Source: Enterobacteria phage GiZh. Taken from it: 64,000 nucleotides of DNA. This document shows positions 2,942 to 55,678 of this stretch, one piece after another. Positions within the stretch are counted from its first letter, which is position 1. Each line of letters opens with the position of its first letter. The DNA lies in sequence record NC_054903.1; one strand, given 5' to 3'. Under the pieces are notes generated by a model, which ran no database searches, was not told the DNA's origin, and saw only the letters and a program-made list of their open reading frames with translations. The position numbers were made by a program, and so were the translations under genes.

Positions 2942-4057
2942 ATGGAAAAATTTATGGCAGAGTTTGGACAAGGATATGTCCAAACGCCATTTTTATCGGA
3001 AAGCAATTCAGTAAGATATAAAATAAGCATAGCGGGTTCTTGCCCGCTTTCTACAGCAGGACCATATGTTAAATTTCAGGATAATCCTGTAGGAAGTCAA
3101 ACATTTAGCGCAGGTCTTCATTTAAGAGTTTTTGATCCTTCTACAGGAGCATTAGTTGATAGTAAGTCATATGCTTTTTCGACTTCAAATGATACTACAT
3201 CAGCTGCTTTTGTTAGTTTCATGAATTCTTTGACAAATAATAGAATTGTTGCTATATTAACTAGTGGAAAGGTTAATTTTCCTCCTGAAGTAGTATCTTG
3301 GTTAAGAACCGCAGGAACGTCTGCTTTTCCATCTGACTCTATATTGTCAAGATTCGACGTATCATATGCTGCTTTTTATACTTCTTCTAAAAGAGCTATC
3401 GCATTAGAGCATGTTAAATTAAGTAATAGAAAAAGCACAGATGATTATCAAACTATTTTAGATGTTGTATTTGACAGTTTAGAAGATGTCGGAGCTACCG
3501 GGTTTCCAAGAAGAACGTATGAAAGCGTTGAGCAATTCATGTCAGCGGTTGGTGGAACTAATAACGAAATTGCGCGTTTACCGACTTCATCCGCGATAAG
3601 TAAACTATCTGACTACAATTTAATTCCTGGTGATGTTCTTTATCTTAAAGCACAGCTATACGCCGATGCTGATTTACTTGCTCTTGGAACTACAAATATA
3701 TCTATCCGTTTTTATAATGCATCTAATGGATATATTTCCTCGACACAAGCTGAATTTACTGGGCAAGCTGGGTCATGGGAATTAAAGGAAGATTATGTAG
3801 TTGTTCCAGAAAACGCAGTAGGATTTACGATATACGCACAGAGAACTGCTCAAGCGGGACAAGGCGGTATGCGAAATTTAAGCTTTTCTGAAGTATCAAG
3901 AAATGGCGGCATTTCAAAACCTGCTGAATTTGGCGTCAATGGTATTCGTGTTAATTATATCTGTGAATCTGCTTCACCTCCGGATATAATGGTACTTCCT
4001 ACGCAAGCATCGTCTAAAACTGGTAAAGTGTTTGGGCAAGAATTTAGAGAAGTATAA
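2942..4057 (+). CDS. 35: long tail fibre hinge connector gp35
   Basis: 371 aa (T4 gp35 ~372 aa); position between 34 and 36. Confidence 0.85.
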   Translation: MEKFMAEFGQGYVQTPFLSESNSVRYKISIAGSCPLSTAGPYVKFQDNPVGSQTFSAGLHLRVFDPSTGALVDSKSYAFSTSNDTTSAAFVSFMNSLTNNRIVAILTSGKVNFPPEVVSWLRTAGTSAFPSDSILSRFDVSYAAFYTSSKRAIALEHVKLSNRKSTDDYQTILDVVFDSLEDVGATGFPRRTYESVEQFMSAVGGTNNEIARLPTSSAISKLSDYNLIPGDVLYLKAQLYADADLLALGTTNISIRFYNASNGYISSTQAEFTGQAGSWELKEDYVVVPENAVGFTIYAQRTAQAGQGGMRNLSFSEVSRNGGISKPAEFGVNGIRVNYICESASPPDIMVLPTQASSKTGKVFGQEFREV

Positions 4058-4062
4058 ATTGA

Positions 4063-4089
4063 GGGAGCCTTCGGGTTCCCTTTTTCTTT
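4063..4089 (+). terminator. hairpin (GGGAGCC-UUCG-GGUUCCC) plus T-run after gene 35
   Basis: stem-loop with UUCG tetraloop followed by tttttcttt. Confidence 0.5.
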
Positions 4090-4096
4090 ATAAATA
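4089..4096 (+). promoter_or_regulatory. T4-type late promoter TATAAATA upstream of gene 36
   Basis: exact TATAAATA ~24 nt upstream of ATG at 4120. Confidence 0.5.
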
Positions 4097-4119
4097 CTAT
4101 TAAAATAAAGGGGCATACA

Positions 4120-4785
4120 ATGGCTGATTTAAAAGTAGGTTCAACAACTGGAGGCTCTGTCATTTGGCATCAAGGAAATTTTCCATTGAATCCAGCCGGT
4201 GACGATGTACTCTATAAATCATTTAAAATATATTCAGAATATAACAAACCACAGGCTGCTGATAACGATTTCGTTTCTAAAGCTAATGGTGGTACTTATG
4301 CATCAAAGGTAACATTTAACGGTGGAGTTCAAGTTCCGTATGCTGTAAACAACACAAACCTATGCGGTGTTTATCCAGGTAACGGTGATAATGCTACTTT
4401 TGCTGTAGCAAATATCGATATTGTTTCGTGGAATGGTATTGGTTTTAAATCATCACAAGGTTCAGCAGCTCGAACTGTTGTAATTAATGCACGTAATGGT
4501 GATATTAGTACAAAAGGCGTTGTGTCGGCAGCAGGTCAAGTAAGAAGTGATGCGGCTGCTCCTATAGCAGCGAATGACCTTACTAGAAAGGACTATGTTG
4601 ATGGAGCAATAAATACTGTTACGGCAAATGCAAACTCTAGGGTGCTACGGTCTGGTGACACCATGATAGGTAATTTAACAGCGCCAAACTTTTTCTCGCA
4701 GAATCCTGCATCTCAACCTTCACACGTTCCACGATTTGACCAAATCGTAATTAAGGATTCTGTTCAAGATTTCGGCTATTATTAA
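4120..4785 (+). CDS. 36: long tail fibre distal subunit gp36
   Basis: 221 aa, same as T4 gp36; synteny. Confidence 0.85.
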
Positions 4786-4793
4786 GAGGACTT

Positions 4794-7700
4794 ATGGCTA
4801 CTTTAAAACAAATACAATTTAAAAGAAGCAAAACCGCAGGTGCACGTCCTGCTGCTTCAGTATTAGCCGAAGGTGAATTGGCTATAAACTTAAAAGATAG
4901 AACAATTTTTACTAAAGATGATTCAGGAAATATCATCGATTTAAGCATTTCTGCTGGTGGTAATATCAGTGGTAATATTACTCAAACTGGTGATTATACA
5001 CAGACTGGAAAATTTAATTTAATTGGTCCGCAAATTGTAGAAAGCGGTGGATATATTGAGTTTAATTATCGTACTACTGGAAGTGGGGCTTGGTCCGGTC
5101 AACATACTGCGAAAGCTCCAATTTTTGTAGATTTAAGCTCAGCTACTTCCACATCTGAATATAATCCTATAATTAAACAGCGCTTTAAAGATGGAACTTT
5201 TTCATTAGGTACTTTAGTTTCTGAAGGTTCGTTGAAGATTCATTATATCAATGAATCTGGCGATTCGAAATATTGGACGTTTCGACGTGACGGCGGATTT
5301 ACTGTTGACGGTGGAGGTTTAGGAGTATCAGGAGGTAGTATAACTACATCTGGAAATATTGCAGCTCTCGGAAATATTACTTCGCCTCAGATTAATACTA
5401 AAAATATTATTTTAGATACAAAAGCATTTGGACAATACGATTCGCAGTCATTAGTTCAATATGTTTATCCTGGAACCGGTGAAGAAAACGGTATAAACTA
5501 TCTTCGTAAAGTTCGAGCTAAATCAGGCGGAACTATTTACCATGAAATCGCTTCAGCTCAAACCGGTAAAAATGATGAAATTTCTTGGTGGACCGGAAAT
5601 ACACTTACTACTAAATTAATGGGTCTTCGTAATGATGGCGCAATGGTATTACGTCGTTCACTTGCTATTGGCACAATTACCACTGACGAAAATACTAACA
5701 ACTATGGTTCTCCTACTCCAATGGGAGAAAGATATATTGCTTTGGGCGATGCTGCCACTGGTTTAAAATACATTAAGCAGGGCGTTTATGATTTAGTAGG
5801 TAATTGGAATTCTGTTGCGTCTATTACTCCTGATAGTTTCCGTAGTACTCGTAAAGCGATATTTGGACGTTCAGAAGACCAAGGCGGAACCTGGACAATG
5901 CCTGGAACGAACGCTGCCTTTTTATCAGTTCAAACACAGGCTGATGAAAACACTGCTGGAGACGGCCAGACGCATATTGGCTATAACTCAGGCGGAAAAA
6001 TGAACCACTATTTCCGTGGTAAAGGCAAAACTAATATTAATACTCAGGAAGGTATGGAAGTTAATCCGGGTATTTTGAAATTGGTAACTGGCTCTAATAA
6101 TGTAATGTTTTATGCTGATGGCGGTATTACATCTGTTAAGCAGCTTTCAATATATAATGGCATATATTTAGCAGCTAATAATTCTACTGCTGGGCTAACA
6201 TTCGCTCCAACTACTACAATTGATGGCACTAAGCAAATTTTGTGGGAAGGCGGTACTCGTGCTGGTCAGAATAAAAGCTATGTAACTGTTAAAGCATGGG
6301 GTAATTCATTTAACGCATCTGGCGATCGTAATCGTGAAACGGTTTTTGAAGTAGCTGATGGACAAGGATATTATTTTTATTCACAGCGTGTGGCTCCAAG
6401 TGGCTCTGAAACTACTGGGCCTGTTGTAACCCAGTTCAATGGACAAGTTAATGCTAGAGGAAGTATTATTACTGACGGAAGTTTTAAAGTTAATGGATTA
6501 AGCACTTTAGTCGGTAATGTTACCATGTCTAATGGTTTGTTTGTCCAAGGTGGTTCTTCTATTACTGGACAAGTAAAAATTGGTGGAACTGCTGATGCAT
6601 TAAGAATTTGGAATGCCGAATACGGTGCTATTTTCCGTCGCTCAGAAACAGCATTACATATTATCCCGACTCCTAAAGATGCCGGTGAAAGTGGTGGAAT
6701 AAGTAATCTCCGCCCACTTAGTATTAGTCTTAATAATGGTATGGTACAAATGCGCCATTCTGTTACGTTAGGCGATGATGGCGCTGGCGGTAATATGATT
6801 ACTGTGGACAACGATACCAAACTTGTTGTTGTTACTAGTCATAGTCGTATTTCTCCTAATTACCGTATGCAGGTAGGACAAGCAGCTTATATTGATGCTG
6901 AATGTACTGACACCGTTCGCCCGGCTGGCGCAGGGTCTTTTGCTTCACAAAATAATGAAAACGTTCGTGCTCCGTTCTATATGAATATTAATCGCACAGA
7001 TACAAGTACTTACGTTCCTATTTTAAAACAACGTTATGTTCAAGGAAATAGCTGTTATTCTTTAGGTACTTTAATAAATGGCGGTAACTTCAGAGTTCAT
7101 TATCATGAAGGTGGAGACGGAAGTTCAACAGGCGCAATTATAAAAGATTTAGGCTGGGAATTTACACGTTCTGGTGATTTTATATCTCCTAAGCGCATTT
7201 CTGCTGGGGGTTCAGTTTATTTAGGTACAGACGGTAACATTACTGGTGGTTCTGGTAATTTTGCCAACTTAAATAGTACAATTGAATCACTTAAAACTGA
7301 TATTGTTTCAAGTTATCCTATTGGAGCTCCGATTCCTTGGCCTACTGATACACCTCCTGAAGGTTATGCCATAATGGAAGGTCAAACATTTGATGTTGGC
7401 TTGTATCCTAAGTTAGCTGCGGTGTATCCTTCCGGCTCTCTGCCTGATATGCGCGGGCAAACTATCAAGGGTAAACCATCTGGGCGTGCTGTATTAAGTA
7501 CAGAAGCAGACGGTGTTAAGTCACATAGTCATAGTGCAAGTGCATCAAGCACGGATTTGGGTACTAAGACCACATCAAGCTTTGACTATGGTACTAAGAC
7601 GACAAGTAGTTTCGACTATGGTACTAAGACCAGTAATAATACTGGTGCTCATACGCATAGTTTGAGCGGTTCCACAAACACCGCCGGTGCGCACAGCCAC

Positions 7701-48342: not shown

Positions 48343-49029
48343 TTAAAAATCGTGGGTAGAATCAGCTTCAAGAGCTACTACATAATTCGCATGTTCACCT
48401 TCAAATTTAGCAGCACCTTGTTTACCTTTTGCCCAGAGCAGAAGTTTATAATTTCCTGGTTGCATTTTCATATTTGCCATATTGATAATGAAATTAAATG
48501 TATTTTCACCATCATAATCACCAAGAGTCAAAGAATATTTAACACGAGTCAAAGCAGAATCTTCTACTTTATTAAAACCGTTAATTACGATTTTACCTTC
48601 TTTTACCGTGATAGCAATTGTATCAATTTGCAGACCACGAGATACACGCAACAGTTGTTGAAGGTCTTCAGCTTTAATTTCAGTAACAACAGATGCTACC
48701 GGGAATGGAATTGGTTTATTAGGAGCAACTACTGTACTCGGATCGGCTGCTGGCCAAAAAATTGTTGAACGAGCATCAGCAATTTTAATATTTCCATCTT
48801 CTGACTGGGAAATTTCTGCATCATCATTAACTAGAGACAGAATACCAAGAAAACCGTTCAAATCGTAAATCGCTACATCAAAATCAATAGTGTCAGAAAT
48901 ATTTGCTTCTGCATAAGTTGTACCATTAACTGCGCGAGTCATAATAAATTGACCTGATTTAAGCATAATGCCAGAGTTAATAGTAGCGAAATTTTTCAAA
49001 ATATTCAGTGTGTCTTTAGATAATTTCAT
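48343..49029 (-). CDS. 45: sliding clamp gp45
   Basis: 228 aa, same as T4 gp45. Confidence 0.9.
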   Translation of the reverse strand: MKLSKDTLNILKNFATINSGIMLKSGQFIMTRAVNGTTYAEANISDTIDFDVAIYDLNGFLGILSLVNDDAEISQSEDGNIKIADARSTIFWPAADPSTVVAPNKPIPFPVASVVTEIKAEDLQQLLRVSRGLQIDTIAITVKEGKIVINGFNKVEDSALTRVKYSLTLGDYDGENTFNFIINMANMKMQPGNYKLLLWAKGKQGAAKFEGEHANYVVALEADSTHDF

Positions 49030-49913
49030 TTCAATTTCCTATTTACATAATAGTTAGACCAGGACCGTACAGCACCCTGATAAGATTCGTCGTTAAACCC
49101 ATTAGCTACTGCAATTTTACGAAATTTATTATAACTTGGTTTTCCGTAAGCATGCCATAAAGATTTTAATTCATCTTCATGTTCAATCCAAGTTCCTCTA
49201 GCTTTAGATTTTCTAAATTTTGATTTGAATTCCGGTAAATTATTTCTAACAGTTGCTTGAATTGAAGCTCTCTGTCTTCTTTCAGCATTATTCCATAATT
49301 CTTTTTGAGATTTAGAAATTTTTGATCTTACACTTTCTGAATTCATTATATCACTAAACTTTTTAGCATAACTACAATCAAGATATTTCAATTTCATCTT
49401 ATTTGAGAGTTTAAGCTTTTTCTCATCGGTCCAGTGATTCTTCATTGAATTAGATATTTTGTATTTTACTTCAGAACTATGTTTGTAACCTTTACGAATA
49501 CCGACATACTCAGGCGTAATTTCAGATTGCGAAAGCTTTACAATTTTTCCAGTTAAAACATTTTTATATGTTCCATATCCTTTAGCACCAATTAAAGTAT
49601 TTTCATCTGCGTATGCTTTATTAAAATATTTTATATTACTCTTTGCTTTAACTTTTAATTGAAAAAATCTCTCCAATTTTCTTGGATCTAATATAGTTTC
49701 AGCTAAAATTTTGACGGTATATTTAGTGGTTTTAATAAGTTCAAAATATTCATCGCTATAACTCGATGACACGCTTCCAGTATAAATCTTTCCAGCTGAA
49801 TCAATTATATTTGTTCCATCGAAAATTGCGTTAATTTTTGAACCTATATAATAACACGGAAAAATATTTTTAGCTTCCCGCTCTGGAAAGCTAATAAGAT
49901 ATACTAAATTCAT
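49026..49913 (-). mobile_element. putative Seg-like GIY-YIG homing endonuclease gene (295 aa)
   Basis: N-terminal VYLIS...YYIGS (GIY-YIG-like) and repeated basic K/S-rich C-terminal motifs; T4 has no large gene here. Confidence 0.45.
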
Positions 49914-50299
49914 TTATTAAACTCGGCCACAATTGTTTCCGCAACAATTTGTGCAGCAACAATCAGACGTTCATCTGCATTACCGCAATAATCATCTTCA
50001 AGGCGTTCACCACATGAAGTCATAATAAATTTAGCACCGGCGTTTAGGGATTCTGTAGTATGTTTGCGCATTAGTTCAATCCATTTATTACTTACTTCAC
50101 GATCGATAGCTTCATAATACGCATGACGAGCAGGTGCAGATTTAATTTTGTTCTGAATAACTTCCATTGCGTTATCAGAAAGAGACAAAACCCATGCGCG
50201 ACGAATTTTATTTTGGTTTTGTGGATTTGATTCAGAACGCACGTGTTTTGGCTGAATATCTTTTACATCAACAGTATAATTCACAGTAATTTTAGTCAT
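49910..50299 (-). CDS. rpbA: RNA polymerase-binding protein RpbA
   Basis: 129 aa, same as T4 RpbA; position upstream of 45. Confidence 0.7.
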
Positions 50300-50308
50300 A
50301 ATACACCT

Positions 50309-50497
50309 TTAGTCATAATAATCAGTAACAGTCCAAGCTTCATTTCTATTGGACATTATTTTTGTATATTCTGCTTTAAATGCATTCCTAAGCATAGATT
50401 CAGTAACTATATGCTCTTCATTAGAAAAATTATTTCTCAGAATATATCGTTTTATTTCAGGAAAAGTTAATAAATGCTGTCCAGTTGAATATTCCAT
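50309..50497 (-). CDS. hypothetical protein (62 aa)
   Basis: ORF. Confidence 0.45.
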   Translation of the reverse strand: MEYSTGQHLLTFPEIKRYILRNNFSNEEHIVTESMLRNAFKAEYTKIMSNRNEAWTVTDYYD

Positions 50498-50552
50498 GTT
50501 TTTCCTCCATAGAGATTATACTCTAATAAATTAAAGCATAATCTCTTATAAA

Positions 50553-52682: not shown

Positions 52683-53698
52683 TGTGTTGCCTCTACATAT
52701 AGCTGATTTGCATATTGAATAAGTGCTTCGCGATCAGAATCAGTGATGTCTGGAATTGCATTAATGTATTCTTCCATCAATGTCTGAAGAGATTGAACTT
52801 CAACTTCTTCACTGTCATCTGACTCAACAGAGTTATCAATCTTTGACACAACTCGTAATGAATGCACAACTTTTTCTAGTTCAGATTCGAACTTCGTTAG
52901 ATTTTTGTCTACTTCAGTTACTATAACACGTACTGATAGATTTGTAAAATCTTTATAGTCAATTTTTCCTTTAAATGGATAATGAATTCTACGATGCCAT
53001 GTAGTATTGTTTGGAATAAATTCCATTCGTTCTGTTTCTGTATCAAACATCCAGAACCCGCGAGGGTCATTCTCGTCACCTGCAGTTAGTGTCCATGGTG
53101 TCCCAATATATCTGACGTTAGCAGCCTCAGAAATAGTATGGAAGTGACCAGACCACACTTCCTTATAAGTCTTAAGGAAATCAGGTTCAAGACCGTGAGA
53201 TTTCATTCCTTTATAAAAATAAAATCCGTTCAGTTCCCAGTGACCAACACAAAAAGAAGCAGAAGAAGTTTTTATGTGCTCGAGAATTTCACCAGTATTT
53301 TCTTCACACATCCAAGGAATTAAATCAATTAAACATCCGTCAAAATCTACTGTAGTAGGCTTATCATATACTTTAACATTAGGATATTTAGCCAAAAGCT
53401 CAGTAGAGGCATTTGGATGCATTACATTTTTGTAGTGGAGATCGTGATTTCCTACAATAGTATGTAATGTGATTCCAGCATCATCAAGCATTTGAACTAT
53501 TTCACGAGCAAACTCCATAGTTTTATGCGTGATTGCTTTTCGCACATCAAAAATATCACCGTATTGAATCCAGGTAGTAATTCCATTTTTCTTAGAATAT
53601 TCTATCGCTTGTTTAATTCCATCAATTTGAATACCGCGAATCCACTCATCATCAGCTTTAACGCCTAAATGCCAATCACCCAAGTTTAGTATTTTCAT
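52679..53698 (-). CDS. 47: recombination endonuclease subunit gp47 (Mre11/SbcD-like)
   Basis: 339 aa; sequence recognised (MKILNLGDWHLG..). Confidence 0.9.
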   Translation of the reverse strand: MKILNLGDWHLGVKADDEWIRGIQIDGIKQAIEYSKKNGITTWIQYGDIFDVRKAITHKTMEFAREIVQMLDDAGITLHTIVGNHDLHYKNVMHPNASTELLAKYPNVKVYDKPTTVDFDGCLIDLIPWMCEENTGEILEHIKTSSASFCVGHWELNGFYFYKGMKSHGLEPDFLKTYKEVWSGHFHTISEAANVRYIGTPWTLTAGDENDPRGFWMFDTETERMEFIPNNTTWHRRIHYPFKGKIDYKDFTNLSVRVIVTEVDKNLTKFESELEKVVHSLRVVSKIDNSVESDDSEEVEVQSLQTLMEEYINAIPDITDSDREALIQYANQLYVEATQ

Positions 53699-54299
53699 GG
53701 TGTCTTTTCCATCCTAATTTAGCTGCTTTTGAAACCAGTTCTTTAATTTTTCCTTTTGTCCATTCAGGACCAGGAGGTTCATGACATAACATTTGCTTAA
53801 CTCCGTTATTATACCATTTTTTACCTTTATTATGTGATGAAGCTTTAAATTTATTTGACCTTCCTTTTACATAACCTTCTGGAATATAAGGTAAAAATGC
53901 AGATTTTCCTGTTAATGGATCATGTGAATGTATATTTCCTTTACAATTATGAGAACCATATAATGGATGATTTTTTCCTTTAATATCTCTTCCAAATGAA
54001 CCTTTTGGAGCAGCATATGACATATTAAAGAATAATGGATTTTTAACTGCATCATGCAATCGTTGATAATATAACTCGCATTTAATAGCTTCTTCACGCG
54101 TATCAAATTCAGCTAAAATGCATGAATCAAATAAGTGAGGATTATCTGAAAGCTCTTTATTATAAATTTTCTTATACTTTTTAGATAAAACTGAACCATG
54201 ATATCCAGCTAAATGCCTATCTAAAGACGTAGATCCAATATAAAAAGGAGGAAGTTTATCTCCACTATATATTGTTAAATAAGTTATATATTTTTTCAT
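53676..54299 (-). mobile_element. Seg-like GIY-YIG homing endonuclease gene (207 aa)
   Basis: YITYLTIYSG...FYIGSTS...R...E...N pattern; C-terminal KKWYNNG motif; overlaps gene 47 start by 23 nt. Confidence 0.6.
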
Positions 54300-54461: not shown

Positions 54462-54479
54462 AGGGCCGAAGCCCTTTAT
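54462..54479 (-). terminator. hairpin (AAGGGCUUCGGCCCUU) at the 3' end of a-gt
   Basis: UUCG-loop hairpin overlapping the a-gt stop codon. Confidence 0.4.
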
Positions 54480-55678
54480 TTTGTAATAATGTCAAACTGT
54501 TCTTTAAAGCAGAAGCTTGAATCTTGGTGCTGATACAAAAATTCATATGCTTTTTCTCGCTCACGGTCATAAAGAGCTCGGTCAGATGACAGTTCTTTAA
54601 TACGTTCAAATGTTGATTCCATATCATTTTCATCAAACCAAATGATACCGCTATCATGCGAGGTCAAAGGAGTATTATCAACACGGAATTTTAAATTTTC
54701 GCCAGTAGATTTCCAAAATACCGGAATTGTTCCACATGCACCAAGCTCGAGATGAGTATATTCTAAAGAGCGCTGTAGATATTTTTTATCCAACTTACTC
54801 AACTGATAACCAAAACCGGATTTACTCATACGTTCAAGCATTTCGCTATTTACATAACGGTCAAGAATTTGCGTTGGCAAATTAGGAGCAATTTTAATTT
54901 GGTCTACTTGATGAAGACGATAATACTCGTATGGAATTCCTTTTTCTTTAATAGGAATGAACGCTGGAGAACGTTCCAGACCTTCCATAATAGTACTTAG
55001 TCCTGCAGGTTTAAGATGTTTTTCATGAAAATCAAACATCTGATAAAAACCTTTCCATGTAGTCGTACGACCAATCCAACGGTTGATATTCATGTTAATT
55101 TCAGAAACATCTTTCCAGTAGGTTGATCGAACCTTCGCAATATCCATAGGAGGCTGAAAGTTATATACTGTCGGTGCTTCTTCAATATCATCAAACAGAG
55201 AAACAGTTTCTGGATACCACTCTTTCATCAGAACTTTATTAAAATCACCATTATCAGAATGGCTAAAAATAACATCAGCTCGACGAACAGTTTCTTCTAA
55301 TCCCAAATTTCGACGCAAAGAAAGAGAAGAATGGTCATGCTGATAAACTACAACACGAACAGAAGGTTTAATGTTATCAATAATTTTTTTATAGTTATTA
55401 ATAGTGTCTTCTTCAACCGAAGTAGCAGGAACTGAATTGATAATTAGAATATCACAATCATTTACCAGCTTAAGTGTTTTATCGTATTCTTTTGCCAATA
55501 AAACCGGAATTGAAAATGATTTATAATCATGCGCGCAATTACGAGTAAATGATTTATCTTTAGCATAAACCAAAGTTACTTCATGACCATTTTTAATAAA
55601 CCAATCACGTTGCTCGAGTGAGAATTTTGTTACACCACAACCTTCAAGACCTCGAGCCATAAAAATACATACTTTCAT
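54476..55678 (-). CDS. a-gt: DNA alpha-glucosyltransferase
   Basis: 400 aa; near-identical to T4 alpha-gt as recalled. Confidence 0.9.
   Translation of the reverse strand: MKVCIFMARGLEGCGVTKFSLEQRDWFIKNGHEVTLVYAKDKSFTRNCAHDYKSFSIPVLLAKEYDKTLKLVNDCDILIINSVPATSVEEDTINNYKKIIDNIKPSVRVVVYQHDHSSLSLRRNLGLEETVRRADVIFSHSDNGDFNKVLMKEWYPETVSLFDDIEEAPTVYNFQPPMDIAKVRSTYWKDVSEINMNINRWIGRTTTWKGFYQMFDFHEKHLKPAGLSTIMEGLERSPAFIPIKEKGIPYEYYRLHQVDQIKIAPNLPTQILDRYVNSEMLERMSKSGFGYQLSKLDKKYLQRSLEYTHLELGACGTIPVFWKSTGENLKFRVDNTPLTSHDSGIIWFDENDMESTFERIKELSSDRALYDREREKAYEFLYQHQDSSFCFKEQFDIITK

Follow-up and report, generated by a model that had tools for sequence, protein, structure and literature searches.

A putative SegG-like free-standing GIY-YIG homing endonuclease gene between rpbA and the sliding-clamp gene 45 in Enterobacteria phage GiZh

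The stretch of DNA analysed here, called the window, comprises 64,000 nucleotides (nt) of Enterobacteria phage GiZh (NC_054903.1). Between rpbA (49910..50299) and the sliding-clamp gene 45 (48343..49029), it holds an open reading frame (ORF) of 295 codons with an ATG start, hereafter ORF295, which lies on the minus strand like its neighbours, in the order 47, two small ORFs at the positions of T4 46.2/46.1, 46, 45.2, rpbA, ORF295, 45, 44, 62, regA and 43. At the GC content of the window (34.9%), 295 open codons in a row would be expected by chance with a probability of about 7e-11, and ORF295 itself has a GC content of 29.1%, compared with 33-37% for the adjoining genes. It is joined to both of them by ATGA overlaps (Table 1). 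The one with gene 45, pointed out in an earlier note on this DNA, was confirmed, and a second one links the end of rpbA to the ORF295 start. The same note placed the small ORFs 45.1/45.2 of T4 at this position, which proved incorrect, as the T4 rpbA-45 interval is a 55-nt spacer devoid of ORFs and 45.2 lies upstream of rpbA. Over 2,155 nt (48343-50497), the window matches Escherichia phage vB_Eco_CP (OZ034683.1) at every position, and 100% identical copies of ORF295 are found in vB_Eco_CP, SHBML-50-1 and other phages. ORF295 is a real, intact gene.

Table 1. Features of the rpbA-45 region of the window (aa, amino acids; dN/dS, ratio of nonsynonymous to synonymous substitution rates)
Feature	Coordinates	Strand	Basis
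ORF295, SegG-like free-standing GIY-YIG homing endonuclease gene (putative)	49026..49913	-	ORF listing, PHROG 655, dN/dS, GC
N-terminal GIY-YIG catalytic domain, aa 1-~101 (Y5, Y22-I23-G24, K26, Y44, S47, E81, N98)	49611..49913	-	
Three degenerate NUMOD3-like basic helical repeats, aa 146-207, predicted DNA-binding	49293..49478	-	Self-comparison, NUMOD3 of relatives, I-TevI profile matches, modelled helices
C-terminal three-helix helix-turn-helix-like domain, aa 241-295, specific to the rpbA/45 clade	49029..49193	-	
Recoded patch, gene 45 nt 7-33, candidate immune version of the target site	48997..49023	-	Carrier/non-carrier differences
ATGA overlap, rpbA TGA/ORF295 ATG	49910..49913	-	Sequence
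ATGA overlap, ORF295 TGA/gene 45 ATG	49026..49029	-	Sequence
Candidate embedded middle promoter for gene 45, TGCTTAC-N12-TATAAT, 123 nt upstream of the ATG	49128..49152	-	Pattern scan
Gene 45 Shine-Dalgarno AGGAAA within the terminal ORF295 codons (N-R-K)	49035..49040	-	Sequence
Middle-promoter-like element upstream of 45.2, TGCTTTAATTTATTAGAGTATAATCT (MotA box + -10)	50513..50538	-	Pattern scan, identical in T4
10-bp hairpin in ORF295 codons 7-15, then A/T-rich run	49870..49894	-	Terminator-like scan

The earlier note had taken ORF295 for a Seg-like endonuclease, and this interpretation is supported by its homology to SegG, by a nuclease fold and, at the family level, by NUMOD3 modules. In a BLASTP comparison with T4 SegG, residues 1-102 are 40% identical (103 aa, E 1e-16), and nothing aligns beyond about residue 102. 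The ORF295-family profile reaches 132 bits on SegG residues 1-100, but only 5-18 bits on SegA, SegD, SegE, SegF and I-TevII. ORF295 falls in phrog_655, labelled 'homing endonuclease' (E 4e-33), and its N-terminal 103 residues match the SegG family phrog_7504 (E 5e-18), which T4 SegG matches at E 1e-133. With a small family profile, exhaustive searching by HMMER yielded 265 relatives, compared with only five proteins for a word-indexed search, and the conservation figures given here refer to an 80-sequence alignment of ORF295 relatives. The V4-Y5-L6 and Y22-I23-G24 segments that had suggested a GIY-YIG-like N-terminus are indeed present, with Y5, Y22, G24, K26, Y44, S47 and N98 invariant, and V4, P19, I23, S25, N28, E81 and F97 conserved in at least 90% of the sequences. 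The invariant Lys (K26) follows YIGS, and a beta-hairpin insert (region 27-53) carries Y44 and S47. In I-TevI, R27 is the catalytic Arg, E75 the metal-binding Glu and N90 the Asn, and 10-11 residues separate GIY from YIG. E81 and N98 of ORF295 align with the E/N motifs of SegG, SegA and SegE.

An AlphaFold2 model computed on the alignment has a mean predicted local distance difference test score (pLDDT) of 87.6, and of about 95 over residues 1-100. The alpha/beta core fold of GIY-YIG proteins, a three-stranded sheet with flanking helices, is present, and E81 in helix 77-87 and N98 in the loop after it occupy the expected positions in the model. The GIY-YIG structures 9u75 and 1ycz also match the ORF295 product. 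A Foldseek comparison with viral models (BFVD) gave 33 matches at E <= 0.001, the named ones being mostly phage homing endonuclease, GIY-YIG or NUMOD proteins, including 'SegG homing endonuclease' and 'Gp32.1'. A nuclease fold, without which the earlier note would have given up its interpretation, was returned by the searches. Weak matches to PF19835 (SegE_GIY-YIG) were obtained for 3 of the 80 relatives. When the family profile was aligned to I-TevI with hhalign, the NUMOD3 region was the only part to align, the catalytic domain remaining unaligned. A lone GNAT match, returned by phmmer against PDB sequences, was discarded as spurious.

The C-terminal half of the protein is predicted to bind DNA. 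The three Lys/Ser-rich repeats noticed earlier are present at residues 146-161 (SSEVKYKISNSMKNHW), 164-177 (EKKLKLSNKMKLKY) and 192-207 (SESVRSKISKSQKELW), and Lys and Arg make up 27% of residues 141-240. Repeat pairs score 37-38, the maximum for shuffled sequences being 27.5 +/- 3.9 (largest 41), which leaves single pairs borderline. The NUMOD-type modules suggested for a search are supported at the family level, 59 of the 80 relatives matching Pfam NUMOD3 (PF07460; best E 1.7e-17) in a region coincident with the three repeats, but not for ORF295 alone, whose match (E 0.11, 12.9 bits) stays below the cut-off of 20.4. At the repeat region, the family profile matches the I-TevI DNA-binding domain 1i3j in the PDB (E 0.0013), and hhalign aligns the same region to I-TevI residues 168-198. 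RecA concatemers, which topped the profile-versus-PDB list, were rejected as artefacts of repeated weak matches, and 1i3j is the only meaningful entry. As judged from these comparisons, the Lys/Ser-rich repeats are probably degenerate NUMOD3 motifs with a predicted DNA-binding role. The repeats, the NUMOD3 modules of the relatives and the matches to the I-TevI DNA-binding domain therefore indicate a classical bipartite architecture, with a GIY-YIG domain, a linker and modular DNA-binding elements. The DNA-binding part would consist of a short beta-strand region, the three degenerate NUMOD3 helices and a small helix-turn-helix (HTH)-like domain.

With regard to its distribution, ORF295 is carried by 23 of the 502 Tequatrovirus phage records that match the window at 95% identity or better in the rpbA-45 flanks (a few phages being counted twice, as GenBank and RefSeq copies), and the remaining records, including T4, T2, T6, RB32 and ime09, have the 55-nt spacer in its place. 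Homologues with 57-61% identity occupy exactly the same slot in about ten Mosigvirus records (AV114, FL31, JM17 and others), and homologues with about 54% identity are found there in Gaprivervirus VR26 and TH15 (3 of 34 records). Synteny thus points to a single rpbA/45 slot, sporadically occupied in three genera. Like Seg-type genes, ORF295 is free-standing, has the orientation of its conserved neighbours and is present or absent among close relatives. Family members at other loci comprise SegG itself, between T4 genes 32 and 59, and genes of metagenomic T4-like phages that separate the two parts of a split-intein uvsX. Purifying selection acts on the intact copies (dN/dS of 0.08 between the window and N2, and of 0.19-0.26 between genera) and is strongest in the N-terminal domain (0.04-0.17). 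Independent +1 insertions break the frame in EC121 (nt 55), ESh24 (nt 247) and JM17 (nt 473), and five of the ten Mosigvirus matches are split in two pieces; these disrupted copies represent either real decay or sequencing errors. The source record of ESh24 is flagged UNVERIFIED. Such a distribution is the picture expected for a mobile free-standing homing endonuclease gene, with cycles of invasion, decay and loss.

The presence of ORF295 is accompanied by a recoding of the first codons of gene 45. Between the window and T4, 13 of the 30 differences in this 687-nt gene fall in its first 36 nt (binomial P 3e-12), and T2 and ime09 do not differ from T4 in the first 30 nt. An alignment of four carriers with four T4-type non-carriers, extending from about 640 nt upstream to 817 nt downstream, contains columns without a common base at two places only: four of them lie in the final two codons of rpbA, where they give rise to the ATGA junction, and the other 13 in gene 45 nt 7-33. 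The boundaries at the rpbA 3' end are variable (window versus N2). A comparable clustering is seen in the other two genera, with 13 of 24 differences in the first 36 nt of gene 45 between Mosigvirus AV114 and JS09 (P 1e-14), and 8 of 16 in the first 30 nt between Gaprivervirus VR26 and VR20. The recoding is distinct in each of the three genera, and the Ser4 codon TCT is changed to AGC or AGT, which switches the codon class and keeps the amino acid. The motif TCTAAAGA(T/C)ACTA, at gene 45 nt 10-22, is common to the non-carriers of all three genera. The non-carriers T4 and JS09, which belong to different genera, share identical first 22 nt while differing at 161 of 687 positions overall, and, apart from the recoding, no part of gene 45 is better conserved between genera than the stretch of the patch (4 differences per 30 nt versus a mean of about 7). 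Flanking polymorphism of the kind associated with Seg-type genes hence separates carriers from non-carriers, although the patch also occurs in some of the latter. It is present in every carrier checked, namely the window, N2, and 20 of the 23 among the tblastn matches listed, and 58 records have the Tequatrovirus-type patch (at least 95% identity) versus only 23 carriers. No T4-type target was found elsewhere in the window within three mismatches. Gene 45 nt 7-33 probably marks the recognition or cleavage site, of which carriers would hold an immune version.

The recoding is not fully silent, residues 8-10 of gp45 being T-A-L in T4 and L-N-I in the window (48997..49005, codons 9-11 of gene 45). 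The A9N change is common to Tequatrovirus and Mosigvirus carriers.

No promoter-like element was found directly before ORF295, a generic sigma-70 scan performed no better than on shuffled sequences, and the exact late promoter TATAAATA is absent in and near the gene, where only four one-mismatch sites occur. The middle-promoter-like element upstream of 45.2 is the likely source of a 45.2-rpbA-endonuclease transcript. The Shine-Dalgarno sequence of ORF295 is weak at best, and none is apparent in N2; because of this, its translation probably depends on ribosomes terminating on rpbA, by way of the ATGA overlap. As for gene 45, the T4 spacer contains TGCTTTA-N12-TAAAAT, which fits the consensus of MotA-dependent middle promoters and which we take to be the gene 45 middle promoter. 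This element is lost upon insertion of ORF295. Within the 3' end of ORF295, the embedded MotA-box-like element listed in Table 1 may drive gene 45 instead. It is conserved among the Tequatrovirus copies, and those of Mosigvirus and Gaprivervirus, although their proteins diverge by about 40%, show TGCTTTA-N12-TATATT in the corresponding place. The note's translational coupling between ORF295 and gene 45 is plausible from the overlap, but gene 45 need not rely on it, since its own Shine-Dalgarno sequence is encoded by the terminal codons of ORF295. This AGGAAA is kept in the copies of all three genera and in endonuclease-free T4.

The observations made at this locus include the gene itself, its homology and fold, its sporadic distribution in a single slot, purifying selection and the recoded flank, and from the sequences we infer site-specific cleavage and preferential inheritance. 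With moderate confidence, we propose that ORF295 encodes a homing endonuclease of the SegG branch of GIY-YIG enzymes, expressed from the rpbA transcript through the ATGA overlap and homing into the 5' end of gene 45. Having no promoter of its own, ORF295 would be transcribed with 45.2 and rpbA and translated at a low level by ribosomes that have just terminated on rpbA. In a mixed infection, the enzyme would cut the DNA of a related phage lacking ORF295, most likely within the first ~35 nt of gene 45 or just beside them, around the motif shared by non-carriers. Recombinational repair from the carrier would then copy ORF295 and its flanks into the cut genome, and carriers would be protected through the recoded nt 7-33. 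Insertion would remove the promoter-like element of the T4 spacer, and because the element in the ORF295 3' end may now drive gene 45, a subsequent loss of ORF295 would be costly.

Several observations weigh against this proposal, some of which concern the target and others the catalytic domain. About 35 endonuclease-free records have most or all of the patch together with a T4-type spacer; among them, LH2 carries the patch in full, and BGP and slur03 are chimeric (T4-type to nt 18, recoded at nt 19-33). Because of such records, the patch must be considered necessary for carriers but not exclusive to them. Such endonuclease-free patch alleles might confer resistance, derive from short-patch repair or be ancestral, and the patch itself could be a hitchhiking allele. 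Moreover, the cleavage sites of characterised free-standing T4 endonucleases are often hundreds of bp away from the endonuclease gene, and SegG is among those that cut at a distance (PMC2988022), so that the site of ORF295 could lie elsewhere. ORF295 might accordingly be an active SegG-like endonuclease that cuts outside the gene 45 5' end, the patch being a pre-existing allele or a hitch-hiked donor flank. This alternative appears unlikely to us, since clusters recoded independently and in different ways fall in the same 30 nt in three genera, in what is otherwise the best conserved stretch of gene 45, and since no other fixed difference separates carriers from non-carriers within about -640 to +817 nt.

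As for the catalytic domain, no equivalent of the canonical catalytic Arg (I-TevI R27) is identifiable, no Arg is invariant among the 80 relatives, and 17 residues separate Y5 from Y22 instead of the canonical 10-11. Foldseek returned no match between the model and the PDB, and Pfam PF01541 (GIY-YIG) does not match ORF295 even at E <= 10. However, both the Lys for Arg and the 17-residue spacing are found in the active T4 SegG, and SegG itself has no Pfam match, so that the Pfam negative is uninformative for ORF295; Pfam does not cover the SegG branch. The missing Arg and Pfam match would also suit a decayed or domesticated DNA-binding protein that does not cut and is kept for the gene 45 expression signals or for a regulatory role, as would the gene 45 Shine-Dalgarno sequence and promoter-like element inside the ORF295 3' end and the persistence of frameshifted copies in several phages. 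Such a domestication is improbable, given that all family-invariant residues are kept, in the same set as in active SegG, that the N-terminal domain is under the strongest purifying selection and that a patchy distribution such as this one is what an active homing cycle typically produces. A non-homing nuclease, degrading host or competitor DNA or countering host defence and located here by chance, is very hard to reconcile with Seg-type homing endonucleases as closest relatives, with the sporadic single-slot distribution, with the flank recoding and with the NUMOD3 and HTH modules, all of which indicate homing.

For the homing endonuclease of the SegG branch, a more specific scenario can be outlined, which is tentative and, with all its parts taken together, rather doubtful. 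The enzyme would target the first ~11 codons of gene 45, beside the insertion point, in three genera of Tevenvirinae; the middle promoter would be displaced and replaced by one inside ORF295, making the gene hard to delete; and the ~35 patch-only records would represent escape alleles or footprints of short-patch repair, in an ongoing arms race at the gp45 N-terminus. With regard to the promoter, the embedded element overlaps conserved codons, which is a further point of caution; its conservation may reflect the protein and is therefore not proof of a promoter.

Among known systems, the closest is T4 SegG (gene 32.1), listed as an active endonuclease cutting gene 32 (PMC2988022, Table 1). Besides 40% identity over 100 N-terminal aa, ORF295 shares with it the same invariants (Y5, Y22-I-G-S-K26, Y44, S47, E and F-N98), the match to phrog_7504 and the lack of detection by Pfam. 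Both genes are free-standing, have the orientation of their neighbours and directly precede an essential replication gene. Published work describes intronless homing as well as promoter-less cassettes and seg genes with promoters embedded in them (PMC2988022); segG is one such promoter-less cassette, with the middle and late promoters of gene 32 embedded in it, and a similar arrangement is suggested for ORF295. The two differ in locus (rpbA/45 for ORF295, 59/32 for SegG) and in length (295 versus 210 aa), and because no similarity is detectable after about residue 102, a different DNA target can be expected. The target proposed for ORF295 adjoins the insertion point, whereas SegG cuts far from its own gene (PMC2988022), and the activity of SegG has been shown experimentally, whereas that of ORF295 is predicted from sequence.

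I-TevI, the structural archetype, is intron-encoded and has the canonical R27 and 10-11 spacing, whereas ORF295 is free-standing. The two catalytic domains have no similarity at the sequence level, and the beta-hairpin insert at residues 27-53 of ORF295 is shared with SegG. SegA, SegD, SegE, SegF and I-TevII resemble ORF295 through weak profile similarity (Y-x-G-S/E/N motifs, NUMOD3-like repeats) and through the intronless-homing lifestyle (PMC2988022), but they are far more distant than SegG in profile score and occupy other loci. A further comparison can be made with the 'fractured' split-intein genes (Dassa et al. 2009, PMC2677866), as two relatives of ORF295, P0005 and P0009, lie between split-intein uvsX halves. 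Overall, they are 28-30% identical to ORF295, P0005 reaching about 40% in its best local alignment. ORF295, unlike them, sits between intact genes, with no intein or gene fracture. At the loci of P0005 and P0009 (which include 3032-5495 and 3020-5516 on metagenomic sequences), the uvsX N-half ends in an intein N-fragment (...IIPGG/CLAKNT...) and the C-half opens with an intein C-fragment (...VVTHN/T...). This arrangement corresponds to the 'fractured gene' type of PMC2677866, in a term search of which UvsX came up only as an upstream neighbouring ORF and not as a fractured host gene.

ORF295 is an ordinary kind of selfish phage gene, and our understanding of how homing elements work is unchanged by it. 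With it, the catalogue of T-even homing endonucleases gains an uncharacterised member of the SegG branch and an insertion site that is new, unstudied and empty in T4. Of greatest interest is the recoding of the opening codons of an essential clamp gene, seen separately in three genera, which yields a concrete, testable prediction of the target. The natural set of alleles, namely T4-type, chimeric (BGP, slur03), recoded and endonuclease-free (LH2), and carriers, could be used to map the specificity of a GIY-YIG enzyme with unusual motifs, having Lys for the canonical Arg and a long GIY-YIG spacing. ORF295 also accounts for a local mosaic boundary and for the polymorphism of gp45 residues 8-10 in an otherwise conserved replication protein. 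With regard to annotation, the gene is labelled 'homing endonuclease' in SholemSchwarzbard and F13076 (GenBank) and in RefSeq NC_031085.1, 'putative homing endonuclease' in PaulHMueller and 'putative DNA endonuclease' in VR26, and most other records have 'hypothetical protein', Pfam missing the whole SegG branch. Among the papers searched, none links a homing endonuclease to rpbA or to the rpbA-45 slot, and none describes ORF295. In VR26, the endonuclease coding sequence is annotated from an internal start at 1756, whereas the full ORF (1501-2388) opens with a GTG at 1501, which overlaps the rpbA TGA as GTGA.

The beginning of ORF295 can form a hairpin, TTAGCTTTCC-AGAGC-GGGAAGCTAA, which contains GC pairs and is followed by AAATATTTTT. 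N2, EC121 and ESh24 have it unchanged, and the start of the Mosigvirus copy showed no such stem. The hairpin could damp expression of the endonuclease; a role as terminator or translational regulator was not retained, on account of the Mosigvirus observation and of a z-score of only -1.9 for folding of the surrounding 101 nt.

The impression that the endonuclease set is re-shuffled relative to T4 holds for the window, the differences being spread over several loci. In a tblastn search of T4 proteins against the whole window (E < 1e-3), no match was obtained for mobA, segA, segF and I-TevII, nor for mobB, mobC, beta-gt, segD and segE (segA, segD, segE and segF being the four seg genes tested in this comparison), and the neighbours of the missing genes were all found (39, soc, 56, uvsX, alpha-gt, 55, nrdG and 49). 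Most of these neighbours are 90-100% identical to T4, gene 56 and nrdG reaching only 69% and 81%, respectively. Gene 56 is the target of SegF (PMC2988022).

Another Seg-like ORF, of 207 aa, is located at 53676..54299 on the minus strand, in the interval from gene 47 to alpha-gt (54476..55678), which in T4 holds nothing but the tiny 47.1. Its GC content is 29.5%, its Pfam GIY-YIG match (E 3e-4, 21.4 bits) falls just below the cut-off, and it weakly matches the ORF295-family profile (39.6 bits). It belongs to phrog_10820 (E 3e-94), the label of which, 'HNH endonuclease', is at odds with its GIY-YIG motifs. In RB32 and N2, a mobB-like HNH endonuclease gene is present on the opposite strand between 46 and 45.2, where the window and T4 have a short spacer. 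At least two unrelated families of endonucleases have thus settled in the 46-45 neighbourhood, and N2 has both of them. In Gaprivervirus VR20, a hypothetical protein of about 196 aa is encoded directly after gene 45, where MN01 and VR26 have the clamp-loader gene 44, and this gene may represent another insertion, at the 45/44 junction.

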